DNA of 64,000 nucleotides from Anaerolineae bacterium (GTDB lineage Bacteria; Chloroflexota; Anaerolineae; UBA1429): contig JAXGPZ010000001.1 of assembly GCA_040766725.1 (NCBI GenBank), positions 1,881,946 to 1,945,945 on the forward strand, written 5' to 3'. Position numbers and translations under genes: made by a program. This document shows positions 2,288 to 48,539 of this stretch, piece after piece. The stretch's first letter is position 1, and every line of letters starts with the position of its first letter. The notes beneath the pieces were generated by a model that worked only from the letters and a program-made list of their open reading frames with translations, made no database searches and was not told the origin of the DNA.

Positions 2288-4111
2288 TCACCGTCCTCCG
2301 GTAAACCACTCCTTGATCGCCTCGAGCCCGGTCGCCTTGCCGGGCTTTTGCTCTTCTTGATAGCGCACATAGAGCCCGTCGACCCAGCGGTTGAGGCGCT
2401 CTTCGAGCGTGGTAAAGGCGTTCTGGGTGCTCTCAGTCGCTCTCACGGCCGTTTCTGAGGCCAGCGCCCGCTCGATGTGCGGATGCACCTGCCGATACTC
2501 GAACAGGCCGATGATCACCAGTGCCAACACCGCCGCGATGCGCCAGCCCTGCCGCAACTCGCGGCCATAGCCCGCCGCGCGCGGCTCGCTCCGCATTGCC
2601 TTGGCCTGGCGGTGCTCAGCGATGGTGCCCGGCACCACGCTCACCGCCAGAATCGCCGAAACGAACAGCCGGCGCGCCTCGAACACCCTGGCCACACCCG
2701 TCGCCTGAGGGTAGAGCCCGTGCATCAGCCACAAGAGCCCCATCAACACCACCGCCAGGCTCAGGCCCCAGCCCAACACGCGCAGGAGCCAGCGCTCGAT
2801 GGCGTAAAAGTTCGGCCAGGCCGGCGGCTGCGCCAGGCCGCGAATCAGCCCCGTCAGCGCCCACAACACCGCCACCATGGCGCCCGCGCGCGCGGCAACG
2901 GTGCCGGCCGCCGCAAAGTCAAAGATGGCCCAGTCGAACACCAGCCCGGCGATCAGCCCGGCCAACAGCCCCATCAAGGGCCGCGCCACCCGCGTCGTGA
3001 ACCTCGAGGGCACCGGCCGCACGCGCACGGTGAGCGGCACGGTGTGCAGGTGATGGCCCTCTGCCGCGCTGATGGCCACGCCCGAGGTGCTCTCTACCGA
3101 CACCGGCAACGAGGTGGTGTCCACCGTCACCAGCACATTGACGCGGCCCGAGAACTGCGCCGGCTCCACCCGCACCCAGGGGTCCAGCGGCGTGAGCTGC
3201 CCAAAGAGGTGCCCACGGCTGCCGCGTCGTCCGATGATCATCTCGTGCCGCACGATCTCGTCGGCCAGCACATAGCCCATCTTGAGCTGCCTGGGGTGCA
3301 CCCGCAGCTCGGGCGGCTCGACATAGCCGCTGGAGAGCACAAACGCCTCGAGGGCGGCCCGCCCATCCGAGGGGTGCTGCTTGAGCGCCTCGCGCACCAG
3401 TCGCGCCAGCTCATAGGCGCCCTCCGAATCGAGCCACTCTTCCAGCGACCCGTCCAGCATGTGTTTGACGGCGGCGTTGCCGTGCCGGTCAAAGAGCCGC
3501 ACCATCTCCTCGAGCGTCCAGGCCTCGAGGTTGGCTTTGATCCAGCCGCTGGTGGCCAGCACAAAGGGCCGCGATGCCCTCTGGCGCAGCGCCAGCCGGC
3601 GCTGATCGAACGCCTCGGCCAGCGCGGCGCGCATCGTCGGCTCCTCGAGCCCCGAGCCGAGCGCCGGCGGCGCCTCGCGGATGCGCTGCACCGCCTCGTC
3701 CAGCAGGGCGATGTCGATGGCCCGCTCGGCGCCGAACACCACCGGCAGCTCCTCGCTGAACGCCAGCACCGCCCTGAACGGCGGCGCCAACTGCGGCGCC
3801 TCGTCGGTCAGAAACGTCGAGACGGCCTGGCGCGCCTCGCGAGCCACACGCAGCGGGCTCGGTCGCGTCTCACGGGCGCCGCCCTCGCCCTCTACCAGCC
3901 ACGGCTCTTCGCCGTTGGCCCACACCGAGCCCCGCCAGTCGCGCACATCCAGATGGTAGATGCCCGACGGCGCCAACACCAGCCAGCCCAACTCGTGGCC
4001 ATACACCACCGGGTAGGGCAGCACGTAAAAGTCGTCGGGCAGCCCATCCAGCATCGCCTCGTAGACGATGTCCGATTCGACCGACCCTGGTTCTGCAATG
4101 ATCGTTGCCAT
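2288..4111 (-). CDS. NERD-domain polytopic membrane protein, function unknown, embedded in the Tad operon
   Basis: N-terminal ~90 aa (DFYVLPYPVVYGHELGWLVLAPSGIYHLDVRDWRG) match the NERD (nuclease-related domain) pattern. A long Ala/Arg-rich middle region follows, then 4-6 predicted TM helices at the C-terminus. Spacing to the neighbours is 3-6 nt. Confidence 0.5.
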   Translation of the reverse strand: MATIIAEPGSVESDIVYEAMLDGLPDDFYVLPYPVVYGHELGWLVLAPSGIYHLDVRDWRGSVWANGEEPWLVEGEGGARETRPSPLRVAREARQAVSTFLTDEAPQLAPPFRAVLAFSEELPVVFGAERAIDIALLDEAVQRIREAPPALGSGLEEPTMRAALAEAFDQRRLALRQRASRPFVLATSGWIKANLEAWTLEEMVRLFDRHGNAAVKHMLDGSLEEWLDSEGAYELARLVREALKQHPSDGRAALEAFVLSSGYVEPPELRVHPRQLKMGYVLADEIVRHEMIIGRRGSRGHLFGQLTPLDPWVRVEPAQFSGRVNVLVTVDTTSLPVSVESTSGVAISAAEGHHLHTVPLTVRVRPVPSRFTTRVARPLMGLLAGLIAGLVFDWAIFDFAAAGTVAARAGAMVAVLWALTGLIRGLAQPPAWPNFYAIERWLLRVLGWGLSLAVVLMGLLWLMHGLYPQATGVARVFEARRLFVSAILAVSVVPGTIAEHRQAKAMRSEPRAAGYGRELRQGWRIAAVLALVIIGLFEYRQVHPHIERALASETAVRATESTQNAFTTLEERLNRWVDGLYVRYQEEQKPGKATGLEAIKEWFTGGR

Positions 4112-16416: not shown

Positions 16417-16447
16417 AAAAGAGGGCCCCTCGCGAGGGGCCCTCTTG
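16417..16447. terminator. Bidirectional intrinsic terminator hairpin between convergent genes
   Basis: aaaaGAGGGCCCCTCG/CGAGGGGCCCTCtt is a perfect 12-bp GC-rich stem flanked by A-run and T-run. It sits between the + rubrerythrin-like gene and the - amidohydrolase gene. Confidence 0.6.
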
Positions 16448-24250: not shown

Positions 24251-25717
24251 CTAGCCCTTCTGAGCCCAGTACTCGTCCAGATAGCCCTGCACGGTCTTGT
24301 CCAGGTCTTGCATGATCAGAGCGCAATCGCGCTCTTCGCCCAGCAACACGCGGTCCATGGCGGCGCCGACAGCATCGCCGACCTTGGCGGGCTGCGGCTT
24401 CCAGGCCTCATGGTTGGGCACATCGCCATAGTCGATGGCGGTCAGCAGCGCCTGCTCGTCCACGCCGGGGAACTTTTCCTTCAGCGCCTGCAAGAAGATG
24501 TCTTTGCCCGACAGGCGTGCAGGCACCGAGCCCCACGTCAGCGCAAACCGCTCCAGAATGCCGGGCGAGCAGCACCACTTGGCCACCTCCCAGCCAGCAT
24601 CCTGTTGCTTGCCGGCCGCGGCCATCACAAAGGTGTCAGCATCAACCTGCGCGCTGACCACCCCGGTCGGGCCCTTGGGCACGGCGCCGATGTCCCAGGC
24701 GAACTCGAGCTGGGCATAGACCTCGCCCATCATCCAGGTGTGGCAGTGCCACATGGCCACCATGCCGCTCGCGAACGGATCGTTGGCCAGCGAAAAGGCC
24801 TCCTGGGCCATCTCGGCAGACGCCACAAAGTAGTGTTTCCAGATCGAGTCGCTCATCCACTGGGCGCGCGCCGCATAGGCCGGGTCGTCGAACAACGACG
24901 TCTTGTAGTCGTCAGAAACGCCCGTGGCCGAGGTCGCCCCGAACTGACGGGCCAACCCCGCAAAGTCCATCCACGACTCGTCATAGCCCCACTGCACGAC
25001 GTCGGTGGGGTCGAACCCGGTCTTGTCAGCCGAGTTGCCCTTGGAGTCCAGCGTCAACTGCCGCCCCACCTCGACCAGCTTGTCGAACGTCCAGTTCGCA
25101 TCGTTCCACACGTGCGGGACCTCGTCGACACCGGCCGCCTCGAACAGCGACTTGTTGTAGTAGATGAACGACGGATACACGGCCATCGGCAGGCCCAGCG
25201 TGCCCTTGGAGTAGGTGTGCAGGGTCACCGTCGAACCGTAAAAGTCGCTCATGTCGTACTGGTCGCGCTCCACCAGCGGCTGCAGGTCCAGCCAGGCGTC
25301 GCTGTCGTACAGCTCGGCCACGCCGCCAACGCCGATGGGCATGACGATGTCGGGGGGCGTGCCGGCGGCCAGCATCGCCGAGAACTTGGCCAGGTGCTCT
25401 TCGTGAGGCGTGACCATCAGCTCGGCCGAGATGCCCTGGTCGGCCAGCGTCTCGTTGCACTCGTTGATCAGCGCGGTCTCTTCGGCGATCTGGCTCTCAG
25501 AGGTGCCGGTGCCAAAGCCCACAAAGATGAGGACCTTCTGGGCCGCGGCGGCTTTGGGCGCCTCGGCCTTTTTCTCTGCAGGTGCAGCTTCTGCCGGCGG
25601 CGCTTCCTTGGGCGCCGGCGTAGCCTTGGGTGCACAGGCCGCCAGTAGGGCTGCCCCTGCGCTGGCAGCAAACAGACCTAGGAAGCTTCTTCGCGACACT
25701 CCTGCCTGACCAAACAT
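24251..25717 (-). CDS. ABC transporter sugar-binding lipoprotein (SBP family 1), Tat-like signal
   Basis: Start at MFGQAGVSRRSFLGLFAASAGAALLAAC (AGGAGG SD). An APKEAPPAEAAPAEKK linker is followed by the SBP fold. Confidence 0.8.
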   Translation of the reverse strand: MFGQAGVSRRSFLGLFAASAGAALLAACAPKATPAPKEAPPAEAAPAEKKAEAPKAAAAQKVLIFVGFGTGTSESQIAEETALINECNETLADQGISAELMVTPHEEHLAKFSAMLAAGTPPDIVMPIGVGGVAELYDSDAWLDLQPLVERDQYDMSDFYGSTVTLHTYSKGTLGLPMAVYPSFIYYNKSLFEAAGVDEVPHVWNDANWTFDKLVEVGRQLTLDSKGNSADKTGFDPTDVVQWGYDESWMDFAGLARQFGATSATGVSDDYKTSLFDDPAYAARAQWMSDSIWKHYFVASAEMAQEAFSLANDPFASGMVAMWHCHTWMMGEVYAQLEFAWDIGAVPKGPTGVVSAQVDADTFVMAAAGKQQDAGWEVAKWCCSPGILERFALTWGSVPARLSGKDIFLQALKEKFPGVDEQALLTAIDYGDVPNHEAWKPQPAKVGDAVGAAMDRVLLGEERDCALIMQDLDKTVQGYLDEYWAQKG

Positions 25718-25942
25718 GATCTCTTCCTCCTTTGGAAGTATGCGGCCGCCACGGCAATCCGTGGTGGTCGCCCGGCAACCTTGCAGCACTCGCCGCTGCC
25801 ACAAACACGATAACACCTCATTTTACGCCTGTCAAGGGCATTGTCTGCCCAGTTGCGCCGATGCCAACCTGTTGACGCGCCGCGGCCGTCGCTCTATGAT
25901 GCAGCCAACCCGCGCCACAAGGCGCTGCTCTCGGAGGTCGCT

Positions 25943-29810: not shown

Positions 29811-30428
29811 CTATCGGGCCAGCCCGGCCACACGCAATGCCGCCGCGATGTCCTCGGCGATCATGGCCACTTTGCTCTTTTCGATGCCATAGCTGGGCCC
29901 CGCCTGCAGATACGACGGAAAGGCCCGCGCCCCGACGAACCAGTACTCGCCGCCGCGGATTCTGTAGGTGGCGCCCGCCGGAATGGGCCTTGGCTGGCCA
30001 GCGCGCCGCGCGATGGCGTTCGCCGCCTTGATGGCCACATCGCCCATCAGCAGATAGGCGCGCACCCCCTCAAACGGCGCCAGCTCCTGCTCGAGCAGAC
30101 GCGAACAGGCGTTGATGGCCGCCGTCGGCACGCCATAGCCCACCTTGCCGCACTTGACGGCCGTGGTGCAATAGATGCCGTGCTCCAGCAACTCGGCCAG
30201 CGCTGCCGCCCTCAGGCCTGCACTGGCCAGGGCCGCCAGCGTGGTCGCCTCATAGAGTGCCGTCGGCCCCTGATAGCAGTTGTCGGCCGCCTGCGGCGCG
30301 GCCGTCTCTGCAATCAGCACCACCCGCACACGCTCGGGATCCACCTCCGCCGCCGGCACGTGATAGGCGCCCTGCTCGACGCCTTCGCACGGCCAGTCGA
30401 CACAGCCTACCCGCTCGCTGATGCGCAT
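29811..30428 (-). CDS. Uracil-DNA glycosylase superfamily protein (family 4/5-like)
   Basis: VVLIAETAAP (GEaPG-like), YCTTAVKCG and YLLMGDVA blocks, arranged as in the UDG fold. Confidence 0.5.
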   Translation of the reverse strand: MRISERVGCVDWPCEGVEQGAYHVPAAEVDPERVRVVLIAETAAPQAADNCYQGPTALYEATTLAALASAGLRAAALAELLEHGIYCTTAVKCGKVGYGVPTAAINACSRLLEQELAPFEGVRAYLLMGDVAIKAANAIARRAGQPRPIPAGATYRIRGGEYWFVGARAFPSYLQAGPSYGIEKSKVAMIAEDIAAALRVAGLAR

Positions 30429-30576
30429 CTCGGCCTCCTGTTGCCACGCCCCACGCCCTGATGGTACTCGATCGCGTTACGCCTGTCAGCCACTGCACAG
30501 AACCCGGCCTTCGAATGCGCTTGACAAGACCGGCGGCCTGTGCCACCATACACCCATACGTGAACGCAGGCCGCAA

Positions 30577-30606
30577 TTGACAGGGCGTGATTTGGGGTGC
30601 TATACT
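30577..30606 (+). promoter_or_regulatory. Strong sigma70-like promoter TTGACA-18-TATACT
   Basis: Consensus -35 (30577-30582) and near-consensus -10 (30601-30606), in a lower-GC intergenic island upstream of the peptide ABC operon. Confidence 0.5.
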
Positions 30607-30811
30607 GTCGCATGTTGGCGTTGCCTGTTCATCAAAGCCGATGAGCCGATACGACCTCGGCGCCACTCGAGCCAAGGATACCATGGCTTCTAGCCTTTAT
30701 AGACGATCGCAGAGCCCAGAGGCCGCCCGTAATGCAGCGGCGGTTCTGTGCGGCTCTATCGCTCAGGTGCGCACGCACTTGATGCAGGTTGATACGTTCG
30801 GTTCACCCGGT

Positions 30812-30838
30812 GCGCGACGCGTTGTCGCGCCTTTTTTG
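30812..30838 (+). terminator. Intrinsic terminator/attenuator within the leader (GCGCGAC-gcgtt-GTCGCGC + CTTTTTTG)
   Basis: A perfect 7-bp GC stem followed by a T6 run on the + strand, about 225 nt downstream of the promoter and 175 nt upstream of the binding-protein start. Confidence 0.5.
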
Positions 30839-31013
30839 TATCTGCCGTTTCCGCTTTGGTTTGCGGAGTGCGGCGCCCGCGCTGGAAGACATGGACCAGC
30901 GCTCATCCAGGCGCGCCGTTTTCAGATAACCACTCCGAGAAAGGGGGTCACCGTCGAGCCACGTATGCCTGGCCAGCAGAACGTCCAACATGCATCATGA
31001 AGGAGACCATGTT

Positions 31014-33137
31014 ATGCCAAGGATCCAACTGAACCGTCGCGAGTTCCTATTTGCATCGGCCATGGGCGCCGTGGGCATGGCCCTAGCGGCCTGCGCCAAG
31101 GCTCCGGCCACCGAGGCCCCCGCCGAGGCTCCCGCCGAAGCCCCTGCCGCTCAACCGACGGCAGCGCCCACCAACACGCCCATCCCGACGCAATCTGCGA
31201 CGGCCACACCCGTGCCGACCGCCGTGCCCGTCAAAGAGGCCCCCGAGCTCGCCGAGCTGGTGGCCGCGGGCAAACTGCCGCCCCTCGCCGATCGCCTTCC
31301 CAAGGTGCCGCTCACCCTGGCCGGCGTCGACGGTGTGGGCGCCTATGGCGGCCGCATCCGCACCTTCCATCCCAACCTGGGCAGCGGCACCGAAGAGTGG
31401 TTCTACGGCCACTCGCCTTTCCGCTGGATCGATGACGGCCAGGGCATCGCCCCCGGCCTCTGCGACACGTGGGAGACCAACGAAGAGAACACCGAGTGGA
31501 CCATCCACATCCGCGAGGGCGTCAGATGGTCTGACGGCGAGCCCTGCACCGTCGATGACGTGCTCTTCTGGTGGAACGATCTCGTTCTCTTCCCAGACTT
31601 TCCGGATCAGCCACCCGACTTTGGGCAGGCCGGCGGCGAGTTGGTCGAGCTCGTCAGGGTCGATGACTACACCCTGACGTTCAAGTACGCCGTCTCGGCG
31701 CCGTTGACGCTCAAGCGTCTGGCCATGTGGGTCAATGGCAACATCGGCCCGCGCTTTATCGCGCCCAAGCACTATCTCGAGCAGTTCCATCCCAAGTACA
31801 ATACGGAGATGAAGGACGTCGAGACGCTGCGCGAAAAGATCATCTACCGCCAGAACCCCGATTGCCCCGTGCTCTCGGCCTGGAGCTGCGACAAGTACGA
31901 TCCAGGTGAGCAGCGCGTGTGGAAGCGCAACCCGTACTACTACTGCGTCGATACCGAAGGCAACCAGCTCCCGTACGTCGATGGCATCGATGAAAAGATG
32001 ATCCAGGACGCGCAGGTGCAGGTGCTGACGGTGCTCCAGGGTGGCGTCGACTATCTGCCCTCGGTCAACCACTCGATGGCCTACTCGGACATCGCCACGG
32101 TGAGCGAGGCGCAGGATGCCGGCAACTATACCCTGATGCTCATCGACGGCGGTGGTGGCTCGGGCGTCTACTACTTCCATAACTTTGACACGCCCGACGA
32201 CAAAAAGCGCGAGCTCTATCGGAACCCCGATTTCAAGCGCGCCATGGGCCACTGCATGGATCGTCCGACCATCCAAAAGATGATCTTCTTTGGCACCGGC
32301 GAGTTGACCTCGGGCACCATGAGCCCCAAGGCCATCGAGTTCCACTTTAACGACAAGGCCCGCGAGATGTACGCCAAGTGGCGCGACATGTTCGTGGAGT
32401 ATGACATCGAAAAGGCCAAGAGCCTGCTCGATGGCATCGGCGTGGTCGACGCGGACGGCGACGGCTGGCGCGAGTTCCCTGACGGCTCTAAACTCGAGAT
32501 CAGCATCGACTATCCGGCCGATATGACCGCCATGAACGTCCAGGGCCTGGAGATCTGCACCAAGGGCTGGAATGACGCCGGCCTCAACATCGTGCACAAC
32601 CCCATCCCGCCCGCCGAGTTCGGCACCCTCTGGAATGCCGGCAAACTCGAGATCCGCGCTGGCTGGGGCGCCTCTGACGGCCCCGACCTCCTCGTCTACC
32701 CGAGCTGGCTGGTTCCCAACGAGCCCGAGCGCTTTGCTCCGCTCTGCGGCAACCGCTACCAGCAGTTGGGCACCGAGAAGGAAGACACCGAGCTCGACAA
32801 GAGCCCGTGGGACCGTACTCCGCCGCGGTGGGCTTCGATGGAGCCTGGCTTTGCCGACACCGTCGTCCCCAAGATGCAGGACTTGCTTACCGAAGCCCTG
32901 CTCGAGCCGGACGAGTTGGTTCGTATGCAGATCGTGTGGGACCTGATCGACATTCATGTCGAACAGGGCGGCTTTGGCATGGGTTCGGTGGCCAACCAGG
33001 TGCGCATGTTCATCAAGAACAAGGACCTGATGAACGTGCCCGACAAGGAAGACTTGAAACTGGGCGGCTTTTGCGATCCGTGGATCGTCCCGCACCCGGC
33101 CATTCACAATCCCGAGACCTTCTACTGGAAGGCATAG
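31014..33137 (+). CDS. ABC transporter substrate-binding lipoprotein, family 5 (Dpp/Opp/Nik-type), unusually long (707 aa)
   Basis: MPRIQLNRREFLFASAMGAVGMALAAC (Tat-like signal plus lipobox). An Ala/Pro/Thr-rich linker precedes the SBP_bac_5 fold. GGAGA SD sequence. Confidence 0.8.
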   Translation: MPRIQLNRREFLFASAMGAVGMALAACAKAPATEAPAEAPAEAPAAQPTAAPTNTPIPTQSATATPVPTAVPVKEAPELAELVAAGKLPPLADRLPKVPLTLAGVDGVGAYGGRIRTFHPNLGSGTEEWFYGHSPFRWIDDGQGIAPGLCDTWETNEENTEWTIHIREGVRWSDGEPCTVDDVLFWWNDLVLFPDFPDQPPDFGQAGGELVELVRVDDYTLTFKYAVSAPLTLKRLAMWVNGNIGPRFIAPKHYLEQFHPKYNTEMKDVETLREKIIYRQNPDCPVLSAWSCDKYDPGEQRVWKRNPYYYCVDTEGNQLPYVDGIDEKMIQDAQVQVLTVLQGGVDYLPSVNHSMAYSDIATVSEAQDAGNYTLMLIDGGGGSGVYYFHNFDTPDDKKRELYRNPDFKRAMGHCMDRPTIQKMIFFGTGELTSGTMSPKAIEFHFNDKAREMYAKWRDMFVEYDIEKAKSLLDGIGVVDADGDGWREFPDGSKLEISIDYPADMTAMNVQGLEICTKGWNDAGLNIVHNPIPPAEFGTLWNAGKLEIRAGWGASDGPDLLVYPSWLVPNEPERFAPLCGNRYQQLGTEKEDTELDKSPWDRTPPRWASMEPGFADTVVPKMQDLLTEALLEPDELVRMQIVWDLIDIHVEQGGFGMGSVANQVRMFIKNKDLMNVPDKEDLKLGGFCDPWIVPHPAIHNPETFYWKA

Positions 33138-33235
33138 CGCGGCCCTGATCACCGCACCGAAAGATCTCCGAGAGAGGGGAGACCCCTCCCCTCTCTCGGC
33201 CGAGGCAGGTGAGACATTCAGTTCAAGGGGGTGCG

Positions 33236-34219
33236 ATGCTCAACTACATTATCAGGCGAATAGGCTATCTGTTCGTCACACTCATCTTTGTCATGATCAT
33301 CGGTTTTGTCATCATCGAGCTGCCGCCCGGCTCTTATCTCGAGTTCGAGCTGCAGCGCATTCGCCTGCTGGGCGGCGACCTCTCCCAGGCTCAGATCAAG
33401 GCCCTCGAGATCCAGTATGGGGTCAATGACCCGATCTACCTCAAATTCTGGAAGTGGATCTCGCGCTTTGTGACGGGCGACTTTGGCGAGTCGTTCGAGT
33501 ACAACCTGCCGGCCCGCAACCTCGTGTTTGCCCGCCTGCCTTTTACCATCATCATCTCGGTCCTCACGCTGATCTTCTCTTGGACCATCTCGATCGCCGT
33601 GGGCGTGTACTCGGCCACCCATCGCCGCACCGCGCTGGATTACACCATCACCGTGCTGCAGTTCACCGGCCTTTCGGTGCCGGCGTTCCTGCTCGCGCTG
33701 GTGGTGATGGTCTTTGCGCAACGCACTCTGGGCCTGCATGTCGGCGGCCTCTACTCTGACCAGTTCGTGAACGCCCCCTGGAGCTGGGACAAGTTCGTCG
33801 ACCTGCTCAAACACCTGTGGATTCCCATCGTCGTCATCGGCGCCTACAACACCGCCTGGCTGAGCCGCGTCATGCGCAGCAACCTGCTCGATGTGCTCGG
33901 CATGCAGTATGTGCAGACGGCGCGCTCCAAGGGCCTGCTCGAGCGACGCGTCATCTGGAAGCACGCCGTGCGCAACGCGCTGCATCCCCTGGTGATGGTG
34001 CTGGGCATGAGCCTGCCGGCCATCATCTCGGGCGAGACCGTGGTGGCCATCGTGCTCAACTTGCCCACCACCGGCCCGCTCTACTTTAGGGCGCTGCTCC
34101 AGCAAGACATGTATCTGGCTGCCAGCTTCCTGGTGTTCCTGGCCATCACGCTGCTGATCGGCAACTTGCTTGCAGACATCCTGCTCGCATGGCTCGACCC
34201 GCGCATCCGGTTTGAGTGA
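33236..34219 (+). CDS. ABC transporter permease (DppB/OppB-like)
   Basis: Six TM segments and the BPD_transp_1 EAA loop (YVQTARSKGLLERRVIWKHAVRNAL). Confidence 0.8.
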   Translation: MLNYIIRRIGYLFVTLIFVMIIGFVIIELPPGSYLEFELQRIRLLGGDLSQAQIKALEIQYGVNDPIYLKFWKWISRFVTGDFGESFEYNLPARNLVFARLPFTIIISVLTLIFSWTISIAVGVYSATHRRTALDYTITVLQFTGLSVPAFLLALVVMVFAQRTLGLHVGGLYSDQFVNAPWSWDKFVDLLKHLWIPIVVIGAYNTAWLSRVMRSNLLDVLGMQYVQTARSKGLLERRVIWKHAVRNALHPLVMVLGMSLPAIISGETVVAIVLNLPTTGPLYFRALLQQDMYLAASFLVFLAITLLIGNLLADILLAWLDPRIRFE

Positions 34220-34238
34220 GTCACAGGAGGCGAACAAG

Positions 34239-35387
34239 ATGACTGAAGCAGTTCCGACCCTCCCGCACGTGGACATGATCGCCGAACCGGTGTCCGAAGT
34301 CGGCTTGATGTCGCAATGGAAGCTGATGGCGCTGCGCTTTCGCCGCAACGCCCTCGCCATGATCGGCCTCATCGGCCTTATCATCGGCTATACCATCATC
34401 GCCGTGGCGCCCTTCTTGGGCCCCAACGACTATCTGCGGCAAGACTCGGACTATGTCTCGGGGCCGCCAACGCCCATCGTGTTCCACAATCAGGCCGGCA
34501 GGTTCAGCCTGCGGCCCTACGCCATGGCCATCACCACCGAGCTGGACCCGGTCGCGTTCAAGTTCAAGTACGTCAAAGACGAGACCACCTTCTACCCCAT
34601 CAAGTTCTTTGTCAAGGGCGACCCCTATACCATGCTGGGGTTCATCAAGAGCGACGTGCACCTCTTTGGGCTCGATGCGCCGCACCGCGTCTATCCCTTT
34701 GGGGCCGACCCGCTGGGCCGCTGTATGCTGACCCGCGTGCTCATGGGCGGGCAGATCTCGATGACCGTCGGCCTGCTGGGCGTGGCCATGTCCATCGTCT
34801 TTGGCTCCATCATGGGCACCGCCTCGGGCTACTATGGCGGCCTCGTCGATGACGTCATGCAGCGCATCATCGAGATCATCGCCAGCTTTCCCACTGTGCC
34901 CCTGTGGGCCGCCCTGGCCGCCGCCCTGCCCAAGAGCTCGAGCACGTTCACGCCCCTGCACCGCTATTTCCTCATCACGGTCATCCTTTCTCTGGTGAAC
35001 TGGACCGGCCTCGCGCGCCAACTGCGCGCTAAGGTCATGTCCTACAGCAACTCTGACTTTACCATGGCGGCCCTGGCCGCCGGCGCCAGCGACCGCCGCA
35101 TCATCTTTGTGCACATGCTGCCCAACGCCGCCAGCCACATCATCGTGGTGGCCGCACTGGCCATCCCCGGCATGATCCTCGGCGAGACGCAACTGAGCTT
35201 TCTCGGCCTCGGCATCATGCCCCCGCTGGTGAGCTGGGGCGCACTGCTCAAAGATGCGCAGCAGGTGTCGGTCGTCATCCAGCAACCGTGGCTGGTCATC
35301 CCTGGCGCGGCGGTGATCATCACCGTGCTCCTATTCAGTTTCCTGGGCGATGGCCTCCGCGACGCCGTCGACCCCTACTCGATCTAG
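34239..35387 (+). CDS. ABC transporter permease (DppC/OppC-like, long N-terminal region)
   Basis: AGGAGG SD sequence, an OppC_N-like N-terminus, and an EAA-like FTMAALAAGASDRRIIFVHMLPNA. Confidence 0.8.
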   Translation: MTEAVPTLPHVDMIAEPVSEVGLMSQWKLMALRFRRNALAMIGLIGLIIGYTIIAVAPFLGPNDYLRQDSDYVSGPPTPIVFHNQAGRFSLRPYAMAITTELDPVAFKFKYVKDETTFYPIKFFVKGDPYTMLGFIKSDVHLFGLDAPHRVYPFGADPLGRCMLTRVLMGGQISMTVGLLGVAMSIVFGSIMGTASGYYGGLVDDVMQRIIEIIASFPTVPLWAALAAALPKSSSTFTPLHRYFLITVILSLVNWTGLARQLRAKVMSYSNSDFTMAALAAGASDRRIIFVHMLPNAASHIIVVAALAIPGMILGETQLSFLGLGIMPPLVSWGALLKDAQQVSVVIQQPWLVIPGAAVIITVLLFSFLGDGLRDAVDPYSI

Positions 35388-35407
35388 CAAGGAGGCACTG
35401 TTTCGCC

Positions 35408-36475
35408 ATGGAAGTCAAGACGGCAAACGGCCAGCCCCCGGTGCTGAGCATCAAGAACCTGAAAACCTACTTTTACACCGACCTGGGCGTCTCGCGCGCC
35501 CTGAACGGCGTCAGCTTTGACGTGCCCTTTGGCCGCGTGATGGGCCTGGTGGGCGAATCGGGCTGCGGCAAGAGCGTCACCTCGCTCTCGGTGATGCGTC
35601 TGGTGCCCAAGCCCGGCCGCATCGTCGACGGCAGCATCGTCTTTAACCGCGGCGAGCGCACCAAGGACGGCTACAAGGTCATCGAGTCCATCGAGATGAC
35701 CGAGCTGCAAGACAACGGCCCCAAGGTCCGCTCCATCCGCGGCGCCGAGATGGCCATGATCTTTCAAGAGCCCATGACCTCGCTCAACCCCTCGTACACC
35801 GTGGGCAACCAGGTGGCCGAGACCATCATCCTGCATCAGGATGTAGACAAGCGCGAGGCCATGAAGCGCGCCATCGACATCGTCGACCGTGTGGGCCTGC
35901 CCAAACCGGCCGACCTCGTCAAGCGCTACCCCCACGAGCTCTCGGGCGGCATGCGCCAGCGCGCCATGGTCGCCCTGGCCCTCTCGTGCCGGCCCGCGCT
36001 GCTCTTTGCCGACGAGCCCACCACCGCACTCGACGTGACCACCGAGGCCCAGATCCTCGACCTCATGCGCGAGCTGCAGGCCGAGATGGGCATGACCATC
36101 GTCTTTATCACCCACAACCTGGGCGTGGTGGCGCAGATGTGCGACACCGTCGGCATCATGTACCTGGGCCGCATCGTCGAGATGGCCGATGTCGAGACCG
36201 TGTTCTACAACCCCAAGCACCCCTACACCGCAGCGCTCTTGCGCTCGATTCCGCACGTGGGCAGCGGCTCCAAAGAGCGCCTCGCGCCCATTCGGGGCGT
36301 GGTGCCAGACCCCTACGCCACCATCAGTGGCTGCCCCTTCCACCCGCGCTGCGACAGCTACATGCCGGGTGTGTGCGATGCCGCGGTGCCCGCCGAGACC
36401 GACCTCGGCGACGGCCACATGGTTCGCTGCTTCCTGTACTCGGACAAGGGCGAGGTGGAAGACAATGGCAAATAG
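35408..36475 (+). CDS. ABC transporter ATP-binding protein (DppD/OppD-like)
   Basis: GESGCGKS Walker [16 protein letters not shown] signature, [10 protein letters not shown] Walker B, and a C-terminal oligopeptide-type extension. Confidence 0.85.
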
Positions 36476-37496
36476 CGCAGTCCAAGACAAAGAGGTCATC
36501 CTCGAGGTAAAGGGCCTCAAGAAGCACTTTCCCATCCGGGGTGGCCTGTTCAAGCGCACCCTGGGCGCCGTCAAGGCGGTCGACGGCGTTGACTTTTTCG
36601 TGCGTGAGGGCGAGACGCTCGGCCTGGTGGGCGAGTCTGGTTGTGGCAAAACCACCGCCGGCCGCACCATCCTGCGCCTGTACGAGCCCACGGCCGGCAC
36701 CATCCACTTCAAGGACCCCGACCTGGGCTGGTCGAACCTCGAGAGCATGTCGCGGCAAGAGCTGTTGCCCATCCGCCGCAACATGCAGATCATCTTCCAG
36801 GACCCCTTCTCGTCGCTCAACCCGCGCATGACCGTCAAGCGCATCGTCGCCGAGCCGCTGGTCATTGCCGAGGGCGGCACCGCCGACTCGCACGAAGACC
36901 GGGTGGCCGAGCTGCTGCGCCTCGTGGGCATGCGCCCCGAGTACATGAGCCGCTACCCCCACGCCTTCTCGGGCGGTCAGCGCCAGCGCCTCGGCATCGC
37001 CCGCGCTCTGGCGCTCAACCCCAAGCTCATCATCTGCGACGAGCCGGTGTCGGCCCTCGACGTCTCGATCCAGGCGCAGGTGCTCAACCTGCTCGAAGAC
37101 CTGCAGGGCCGGCTGGGTCTCACCTACCTGTTCATCGCCCACGACCTGAGCGTCGTCGAGCACATCACCGACCGCGTGGCCGTGATGTATGTGGGCAAGA
37201 TCGTCGAGCTCGCCTCGACTGAAGAGCTCTACTACCACCCCAAGCATCCCTACACCGAGGCGCTCATGGCCGCGGTGCCCAAGCCCGACCCGCGTCGGCG
37301 CGACCGGCCCATTCGCCTGCCCGGCGAGGTGGCCAGCCCGGCCAACCCGCCCTCGGGCTGCTACTTTCACCCGCGCTGCCGCTATGCCAAGGAGATCTGC
37401 CGCACCGAGGCGCCGCCCTTTGAAGAGGTCGAGCATGATCACTGGGCGGCGTGCCACTTTGCGCGCGAGCTGAGTCTGCGAGGCGTTGTCGTCTAG
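36464..37496 (+). CDS. ABC transporter ATP-binding protein (DppF/OppF-like)
   Basis: [34 protein letters not shown]. The start overlaps the preceding gene's stop. Confidence 0.85.
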
Positions 37497-47612: not shown

Positions 47613-48539
47613 ATGCCAACCATCGATCTCCGCTCTCGCGCCCGTGGAGCCCTGCTCGGCCTCGCCGCCGGCGACGCGCTGGGCGCCGCTGTCGAGTTCA
47701 CGCCCGGGCCGCACCACCTCACCGACATGGTCGGCGGTGGCCCCTTTGCCCTGTGGCCGGGCGAGTGGACCGACGACACCAGCATGGCCCTCTGCCTGGC
47801 CAGCAGCCTCGTCGAGCTCGGCCGATTCGACCCCGCCGACCAGATGGAGCGCTATCTGCGCTGGTGGCGCGAGGGCTACATGTCGAGCAACGGCCTCTGC
47901 TTTGACATCGGCAACACCGTGGCCACCGCCCTGCGCCGCTACCAGGCCAGCGGCGAGCCCTACGCCGGCGCCACCGATCCCTTCTCGGCCGGCAACGGCT
48001 CGCTGATGCGCCTGGCGCCCGTGCCCCTCTTTTTCCACGACGACGCCGAGGCGGCTATCGAGCACGCCGCGCTGAGCTCGCGCACCACCCACGCCACCCT
48101 GGAGGCCGTCGACGCCTGCCGCTACTATGCCGGGCTGATCTGGGGCGCACTGCAGGGCCTCGACAAGGCCACGCTGCTCGCACCCCATTATGCGCCCGTG
48201 CCCGGCCTGTGGGAGCGCGCCCCCCTGGCCCCCGAGATCGCTGCCGTGGCGGCGGGCTCTTTTCGGCACAAAGAGCCGCCCGCGATCGAGGGCAGCGGCT
48301 ATGTGGTCCGCTCGATGGAAGCCGCGCTGTGGGCGCTCCACAAGAGCGAGGGCTACCGCCAGGGCGCGCTGCTGGCCGTCAACCTGGGCGACGACGCCGA
48401 CACCACCGGCGCCATCTATGGGCAGTTGGCCGGCGCCCTCTATGGCGAGCAGGACATCCCCGCCGACTGGCGCGGCAAGCTGGCCCTGCGCCAGCGCATC
48501 ATCCAGTTGGCCGACGACCTGGTGGCGCCGCCGCGCTAG
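47613..48539 (+). CDS. ADP-ribosylglycohydrolase family protein (DraG-like)
   Basis: [18 protein letters not shown]...WTDDTSMAL...[20 protein letters not shown]. Start at MPTIDL (GGGGGG SD). Confidence 0.7.

Follow-up and report, generated by a model that had tools for sequence, protein, structure and literature searches.

In a 64,000-nucleotide (nt) stretch of the genome of an Anaerolineae bacterium (hereafter the window; GenBank assembly GCA_040766725.1, contig JAXGPZ010000001.1, positions 1,881,946 to 1,945,945), a gene for a substrate-binding protein (SBP) of the SBP_bac_5 family opens an operon that continues with OppB-, OppC-, OppD- and OppF-like genes. We analysed the region just upstream of this gene, which its homologs identify as a cis-acting 5' leader, about 400 nt long, of the mRNA of an Opp/Dpp-type ABC transporter operon of Anaerolineales (Chloroflexota). 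The leader starts at a near-consensus promoter, contains a set of hairpins conserved among close relatives, and carries two elements on which our interpretation turns (Table 1). One is an intrinsic terminator, T1, which comparison with the nearest relative marks as a lineage-specific attenuator. The other is a Shine-Dalgarno (SD) sequence placed far from the start codon of the gene, here called the orphan SD, which was missed in the first-pass annotation of this region.

The SBP carries a twin-arginine lipoprotein signal. Its start codon, first placed at 31015, was corrected to the ATG at 31014, and the match to Pfam SBP_bac_5 confirms the frame. The first-pass annotation had also described the leader as a dip to about 55% GC. 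The dip is real when set against the upstream gene (67-74%) and the first 400 nt of the SBP gene, but its depth was overstated, as the leader measures 57.5-62% and most of the SBP gene body itself is at 55-68%.

Table 1. Features of the leader and its surroundings, in positions of the window.
Feature	Position	Strand	Remarks
UDG-like gene, upstream neighbour	29811-30428	-	Pfam scan
Operon promoter, TTGACA-18-TATACT	30577-30606	+	-35 at 30577-30582; extended -10 TGCTATACT at 30598-30606
Hairpin P1, UCAUC-AAAGCC-GAUGA	30629-30644	+	Alignments, alifold
Hairpin P2, GCCGA-UACGACC-UCGGC	30645-30661	+	Abuts P1; alifold
P3, GCCA paired with UGGC of the AUGGC start	30662-30687	+	Alignment columns 99-102 with 125-128
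Leader open reading frame (ORF), 105 codons	30683-31000	+	Spans T1 and P4; stop UGA overlaps the SD of the SBP gene
T1, intrinsic terminator	30812-30838	+	Stem 30812-30830, T6 30832-30837
P4, extended hairpin, 59 nt	30865-30923	+	Closed by GGA/UUU(C), then a U run
P5, small hairpin	30933-30946	+	Anti-SD-like CUCC pairs with GGGG of the orphan SD; columns 118-121/130-133
Orphan SD, AGAAAGGGGGUCACC	30938-30952	+	-62 to -76 from the SBP ATG; no start codon at a usable distance
Conserved block GCCUGGCCAGC	30967-30977	+	Consensus GCCUGGCAAGC; 5' side of a weakly supported helix, P6
SBP_bac_5 binding-protein gene	31014-33137	+	ATG 31014-31016; real SD AAGGAG 31000-31005; Pfam
Operon: SBP, then OppB-, OppC-, OppD- and OppF-like genes	31014-37496	+	Pfam scans
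Perfect 14-bp GC hairpin without a U tract	33168-33199	+	Just after the SBP stop; z = -3.2

Scans of genome and metagenome collections, protein searches and contig look-ups yielded 62 loci, and by its SBP the window belongs among uncultured Anaerolineales/Chloroflexota. Profile searches with both conserved parts of the leader found homologs nowhere but in front of the genes for the closest SBP relatives (76-90% amino acid (aa) identity), in metagenome-assembled genomes of Anaerolineales, which is why we regard the leader as cis-acting. Six distinct long leaders were obtained, namely that of the window and those of loci L007, L001, L025, L026 and L043 (L023, L057 and L061 equal L007, and L058 and L059 differ by 1 nt). 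All six share the promoter, P1-P3, P4, P5 and the real SD. The structured leader that had been proposed upstream of the peptide ABC operon is therefore real and conserved across six homologous leaders, and it is present in the orthologous operons of the closest relatives, although T1 is kept only in L007.

Beyond this group the resemblance fades. Three loci with SBPs at 80-83% identity (L002, L060 and L062) share only the last ~85-120 nt with the long leaders. Where the SBP is 50-65% identical, the leaders are long as well (~550-900 nt in L053 and L054) but show no recognisable P1-P4 and no spanning ORF. For this SBP family in Anaerolineae, a very long leader is the general pattern across the loci compared. 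Further protein database searches, cluster listing and contig look-ups brought no new long-leader type. A scan with Rfam 15 (4227 models) gave no match in 30300-31200 at E <= 10 and none at gathering score in the whole window; for the leaders of six related loci there was none at E <= 1, the single chance match, to mir-1281 (E = 0.92), falling on the hairpin that follows the SBP gene in L027. ARAGORN detected no tRNA or tmRNA, and our literature search found no account of such leaders in Chloroflexota.

The operon promoter matches the consensus at 11 of 12 positions and has in addition a TG one base 5' of the -10 hexamer; transcription is predicted to start at A30612/T30613. The pattern TTGAC-N17-19-TATACT occurs once in the window and never in 100 shuffles, and TGNTATACT is present as a single copy in the window. 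The consensus promoter first annotated at this site thus stands as near-consensus, unique in the window and kept in homologous leaders: TTGACA-18-TGCTATACT is identical in four of them (window, L025, L026 and L043), and L007 has the version TTGACG-17-TGATATACT. A scan of the window found no second promoter-like site between T1 and the SBP gene. An internal promoter after P4 was considered and discarded, being found only in the paralog L002 and in none of the six long leaders.

Other promoter-like sites were seen around these leaders. A weaker one, TTGACA-17-CACCAT, lies 55 nt 5' of the main promoter (30522-30550), and its -35 region (CGCTTGAC) is kept in L007 (TTGACG-17-CACAAT, 3520-3548). The 5' domain of L001 (3567-3640) has an insertion of ~45 nt in place of P1, and with it comes a second promoter-like site, TTGACA-16-TATATT (3586-3613). 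In three distant SBP homologs (L053, 1071-2001; L054, 1419-2001; L027, 1438-1817), the start codon is preceded at a distance of 345-900 nt by a strong consensus promoter.

Hairpins P1-P3 form the conserved 5' domain. The stem of P1 (UCAUC-N6-GAUGA) is invariant among the leaders while its loop varies, so that there is no covariation and nothing shows that it acts as RNA; P1 may be a DNA operator palindrome instead of an RNA hairpin. P2 has the form GCCGAC-N5-GUCGGC, from which L001 departs by two pairs changed on both sides (GCUGGC/GCCAGC). P3 encloses a weak SD-like AAGGA (30674-30678) and the AUG of the leader ORF (30683-30685), and the evidence for its covariation, which comes from six sequences only, is mixed. 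Downstream of P3 the middle of the leader, ~110 nt up to the part with T1 and P4, shows no sequence conservation. A hammerhead-like reading of (C)UGAUGAG-stem-CG was rejected for want of a conserved GAAA core and of any Rfam match.

P4 is present in all six leaders with a length of 56-64 nt, and its base-stem sequences differ yet stay complementary (CGGCGC/GCGCCG in the window, CGACGUGG/CCACGUCG in L001, AUGGCGCG/CGCGCCAU in L026 and GUGGCGCUCG/CGGGCGUCAU in L025). The covariation for which the first-pass annotation had called is thus found in P2 and P4, but not in the invariant P1. The hairpin is closed by GGA/UCC, and in the window its folding free energy (dG) is -28.3, with z = -2.2. P4 may be a second, weak terminator. 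Further downstream, the block with consensus GCCUGGCAAGC was also read as a sigma-54 promoter; this reading was dropped because the GC element occurs at the required spacing in L025 only.

T1 lies ~205 nt after the -10 element. Its hairpin, GCGCGACG-CGU-UGUCGCGC, has 8 pairs, 6 of them G-C, a 3-nt loop and a dG of -13.2 kcal/mol. Scanned with a loose terminator pattern, the region does not rise above chance (1 found vs 0.9 expected in 2.5 kb); a stricter definition gives four terminators on both strands of the window, among which T1 is the sole one with T6. The GC hairpin with T6 that had been noted ~200 nt after the promoter is thus the strongest intrinsic terminator in the window. Canonical intrinsic terminators are rare in this genome, and the other three in the window are found at 2326-2345 (+), 16422-16443 (-) and 48238-48255 (+).

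In L007, T1 is 195 nt from the predicted transcription start (199 nt in the window) and 178 nt from the ATG (176 nt in the window), and its 3' arm and U tract are conserved with one A-U to G.U change. This conserved position is meaningful because the leader middle has been randomised between the two loci (27-40% identity, the random level) while 66% of the 316 four-fold sites of the SBP gene remain identical. We take T1 to be a functional, lineage-specific premature terminator that acts as an attenuator. As there is no second promoter between T1 and the gene, T1 must be a leaky or regulated attenuator, and the dependence of the operon on read-through follows the logic of attenuation and not that of an independent small RNA (sRNA) gene. 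No conserved antiterminator was found among the leaders: the best alternative partner of the 5' arm of T1 (30618-30624) has no counterpart in L007. More generally, the comparison of window 30693-30812 with L007 shows that turnover in these genomes is quicker in non-coding DNA than at synonymous sites.

The orphan SD is, across the leaders compared, the most widely conserved element and is family-wide. Its pairing with the 16S tail has a dG of -16.7 kcal/mol vs -9.5 kcal/mol for the real SD, the tail (GAUCACCUCCUUUCU) being assumed and not read from this genome. An element with a dG <= -12 lies between -125 and -60 in 22 of 29 non-redundant Chloroflexota SBP leaders and is stronger than the real SD; shuffles averaged 2.65 such leaders and never exceeded 8. 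Leaders that are otherwise unalignable, GC-poor and GC-rich, have AAGGAGGUG(G/A)U 77-105 nt before the start codon, plus a normal SD. This sequence (AAGGAGGUGRU) was found at -77 to -105 in L005, L008, L011, L013, L027, L029, L031, L038, L039, L042, L044, L045, L050, L053, L054 and L056, and the exact 11-mer occurs once per locus, at that site only.

No AUG, GUG or UUG is conserved 4-12 nt after the orphan SD in any leader group, and in AT-rich relatives stop codons are abundant downstream of it. At another site, the window uses the same type of sequence as a genuine SD. L002 and L060, both paralogs with short leaders, have a promoter (TTGACA-17-TATCCT/TATGCT) so placed that ~6-12 nt separate the orphan SD from the predicted 5' end, a position to be expected of a 5' stabiliser. 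L060 has two tandem units (2141-2169 and 2257-2285) ahead of one SBP paralog, each with a TTGACA-17-TATCCT/TATGCT promoter, an orphan SD within ~10 nt and then AUUCGCG.

The element is not a general trait of the binding-protein genes of this genome: such a reading is ruled out by the SBP_bac_1 sugar operon of the window, which has an ordinary 83-nt leader without an orphan SD. This sugar-type ABC operon (SBP_bac_1, two permeases) is on the minus strand (25717-25835) and has the promoter TTGACA-17-TGTTATCGT at 25835-25807. The true start of its SBP_bac_1 gene is the ATG at 25717, the mechanical ORF start, GTG 25816, being over-extended.

By analogy, the orphan SD is probably an mRNA stabiliser of the STAB-SD kind, which docks the 30S subunit. 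STAB-SD elements have reportedly been studied by Agaisse & Lereclus in 1996 and by Mathy et al. in 2007. In the cry3A gene of Bacillus thuringiensis, an SD-like sequence lies in a long leader whose promoter is at -558 and whose stable 5' end is at -129, and this STAB-SD holds off RNase J1 by binding the 30S subunit (PMC4113751). Both elements are SD-like, complementary to the 16S tail and far from the start codon (-129 in cry3A, -62 to -76 here and -60 to -125 in the relatives). The cry3A element does not start translation, nor would the one described here, and both have a promoter hundreds of nt upstream (-558 in cry3A vs about -400 here). The short-leader paralogs, with the element at the predicted 5' end, are like the mature cry3A transcript. 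The present element differs in its phylum, Chloroflexota, in its association with transporter binding-protein genes, and in being partly paired with the upstream CUCC in P5.

At the other end of the cistron, every one of the 13 loci examined has a perfect GC hairpin of 11-17 bp, without a U tract, behind the SBP stop codon (window, L007, L001, L002, L025, L053, L054, L027, L013, L011, L056, L005 and L008). Its arms are polypurine/polypyrimidine (GAGAGGGGAG/CUCCCCUCUC) in 10 of the 13. It probably marks the end of the SBP cistron as a stabiliser of the 3' side or as a partial terminator, and would uncouple SBP from permease levels. Intercistronic 3' hairpins raise the levels of binding proteins, an example being the repetitive extragenic palindrome (REP) between malE and malF in E. 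coli. The hairpin described here is likewise very stable, lacks a U tract and stands directly after the binding-protein cistron of an ABC operon, but with its polypurine/polypyrimidine arms it is not a REP element. Taken together, the orphan SD and the 3' hairpin fit a design that would stabilise the SBP cistron at both ends.

An ORF at 30587-31000 had been described as passing through the terminator and as the only ORF in the region. The reading of the frames bears out the former; the latter is incorrect, as both strands have several further ORFs, of 46-90 aa, that overlap the region. Counted from the aligned start, the frame is open in all six leaders (105, 105, 83, 93, 99 and 99 codons), and it stops 14-88 nt before the SBP start, always after P4. 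In dinucleotide shuffles the open frame has P = 0.026-0.049 per leader, and the Fisher combination gives ~1e-4. The AUG aligns in five of the six leaders, and AAGG-N5-AUGG is found in four of them (L043 is without AAGG).

The encoded peptide, by contrast with its frame, is not a conserved protein on any of the comparisons made. GC content at third codon positions (GC3) is 0.54-0.66 vs 0.74-0.86 in the SBP gene, which shows no GC3 bias in the ORF. Between the peptides of the window and L007, identity is 40% over 67 aa and confined to stretches with conserved nucleotide blocks, and the L026 peptide does not align with that of the window. P4 is crossed in different reading frames in the window, L025 and L026.

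Three other coding arrangements were tried and rejected. A trp/his-type attenuator could use a 10-codon leaderless ORF (30612-30644), which has the same length in L007, but L025, L026 and L001 have no AUG there; the long leader ORF, unlike attenuators of that type, has no regulatory codon runs and no stop before T1. The leader-peptide attenuator suggested in the first-pass annotation is accordingly rejected, its short leader peptide not being conserved. An upstream ORF of 11 codons that overlaps the SD (30965-31000) is kept only in L007 and lies in the frame of the long ORF, from which it is not separable. As for a gene on the minus strand, the longest frames there are shorter and inconsistent.

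The closest parallel to such an ORF is found in E. coli pyrBI and pyrE, where read-through of an intrinsic terminator is coupled to translation, as reportedly described by Turnbough & Switzer in 2008. There as here, a leader ORF whose peptide sequence is irrelevant crosses the attenuator hairpin, no antiterminator is needed and there is a single promoter. The ORF here is longer, with 83-105 codons vs 44, and its SD is weak. In addition, no U-rich tract is obvious in 30700-30810 by eye, pause sites not having been tested formally.

These observations lead us to favour an account in which an attenuating leader is combined with a STAB-SD-like element, and we put the chances that it is right as a whole at about even. 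It builds on features present in the sequences, namely the promoter, the terminator, the conserved modules, the covariation of P2 and P4, the open frame and the orphan SD; from these we infer termination, its coupling to translation and the stabilisation of the message. Transcription would start at ~30612 from one very strong promoter of the sigma-70 type. In this species and its nearest relative, T1 would stop part of the transcripts, and the resulting leader RNA of ~225 nt is probably made in this lineage as a by-product of attenuation. Only transcripts that read through T1 would reach the transporter genes. On these, the orphan SD would dock a 30S subunit and shield the SBP message from decay at its 5' end, and the hairpin after the SBP stop would protect the 3' side.

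More tentative is the control of read-through, for which our preferred candidate is translation of the 105-codon leader ORF from the AUG at 30683, which comes after P1/P2 and within P3. A ribosome trailing the polymerase through this ORF would block the T1 and P4 hairpins from forming, and P1-P3 would gate initiation. We consider this part, which is modelled on the pyr operons, to be possible but doubtful.

Several observations weigh against the favoured account. In L001, L025, L026 and L043 there is no terminator at the place of T1. Attenuation at T1 is therefore not the ancestral function of the leader, and T1 is a lineage-specific addition instead of a conserved core or the core of a riboswitch. 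The attenuator of the first-pass annotation survives in the sense that T1 is a premature terminator on whose read-through the operon depends; it does not survive as the conserved core of the leader. P4 is followed by only 2-5 U, which makes short U runs. The pairing energies of the orphan SD depend on the assumed 16S tail, and P5 ties up part of this element in the present clade. As for the leader ORF, its SD is weak (-4 to -8 kcal/mol) and closely spaced, its AUG is predicted to be paired in P3, and in L025 the AAGG is kept, but followed by a GUG at a shifted, slightly downstream position and by no AUG. Long stop-free frames are also common in these sequences, gene callers call no gene in the leader, and the AT-rich relatives have no such spanning ORF.

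Other explanations were considered. The layout of the region, with a promoter, a conserved structured 5' domain, an intrinsic terminator and then a gene for a transporter, is that of a riboswitch with a terminator platform, and P1-P3 (30629-30687) could bind a metabolite or an RNA-binding protein and so control T1/P4 or the downstream SD, the ORF being open by chance. P2 covaries and adjoins P1 as though the two were stacked, the leader is confined to positions in cis to a single transporter family, and the AAGGA in the loop of P3 presumably resembles a CsrA-type site. We nevertheless find this reading unlikely: there is no match in Rfam even at E <= 10, ~110 nt of unconserved spacer separate the domain from T1, there is no conserved antiterminator and T1 is lacking in four of the six leaders, six sequences being all that are available. 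The riboswitch suggested in the first-pass annotation found no match in Rfam for the window or the six related loci, and lacks the conserved antiterminator. Quite unlikely, too, is a constitutive long leader without sensing, in which T1 would simply damp a strong promoter while the hairpins and the orphan SD would serve processing or stability and a high ratio of SBP to permease. Such a leader would account well for the fact that the orphan SD and the 3' hairpin are the sole elements conserved across the wide family, that T1 is lineage-specific and that paralogs do well with leaders of ~85 nt that start at the orphan SD. It would not account for P1-P3 and P4, which are conserved and partly covarying at a divergence that randomises unconstrained sequence, nor for a T1 position kept in the ortholog and a reading frame kept open.

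The two remaining explanations would make the region a gene in its own right. An independent, trans-acting sRNA of ~225 nt, as proposed in the first-pass annotation, would run from the promoter to T1, and the transporter would be expressed by read-through or from an unrecognised promoter. Terminated riboswitch leaders that act in trans are known in Listeria, the promoter and the terminator are both strong, and the first ~95 nt are conserved with L007. However, the sequence is found only fused to SBP leaders and never elsewhere in the window or in the 62 loci, its body (30693-30812) is at random-level identity even in the ortholog, and four of the six homologs are without T1. With a z-score of -1.8 (minus strand, -1.4), the 229-nt RNA folds little better than shuffled sequence, and no promoter is found downstream. 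We consider the sRNA gene unsupported and improbable. Hardly credible is a functional protein encoded by the ORF of 105 aa (or 137 aa; 30683/30587-31000), in spite of a frame that is open in six leaders from an aligned AUG. It has no match in Pfam, its GC3 falls below that of the SBP gene, gene finders do not call it, and it is 40% identical to its ortholog over 67 aa where the SBP is 91% identical, with no similarity to L026. Moreover, the frame that runs through the conserved nucleotide blocks differs between leaders.

For annotation, our results mean that gene finders and annotators should leave the ORF of 105 to 137 aa uncalled. The clade-specific leader (P1-P4 with T1) is an uncatalogued candidate cis-regulatory RNA for curation of the Rfam type, and it offers a testable case of a long, sequence-free ORF that spans terminators. 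In its boldest form, to which we give a slim chance, our interpretation is that the SBP mRNAs of Chloroflexota have a 30S docking site to which this clade has added a new attenuator, in which an unconstrained ORF of ~100 codons is translated past one or two terminator hairpins with P1-P3 as the gate. If true, this would be a translation-gated, riboswitch-like control of peptide uptake without a described counterpart.

Anaerolineae are dominant and hardly cultivable degraders in digesters, sludge and sediments, and the genes they express most include those for peptide-type ABC binding proteins. Should the orphan SD prove STAB-SD-like, a mechanism known from a handful of genes in Firmicutes would turn out to be a design rule for a whole family in another phylum, and it would explain how these operons overproduce their binding proteins.

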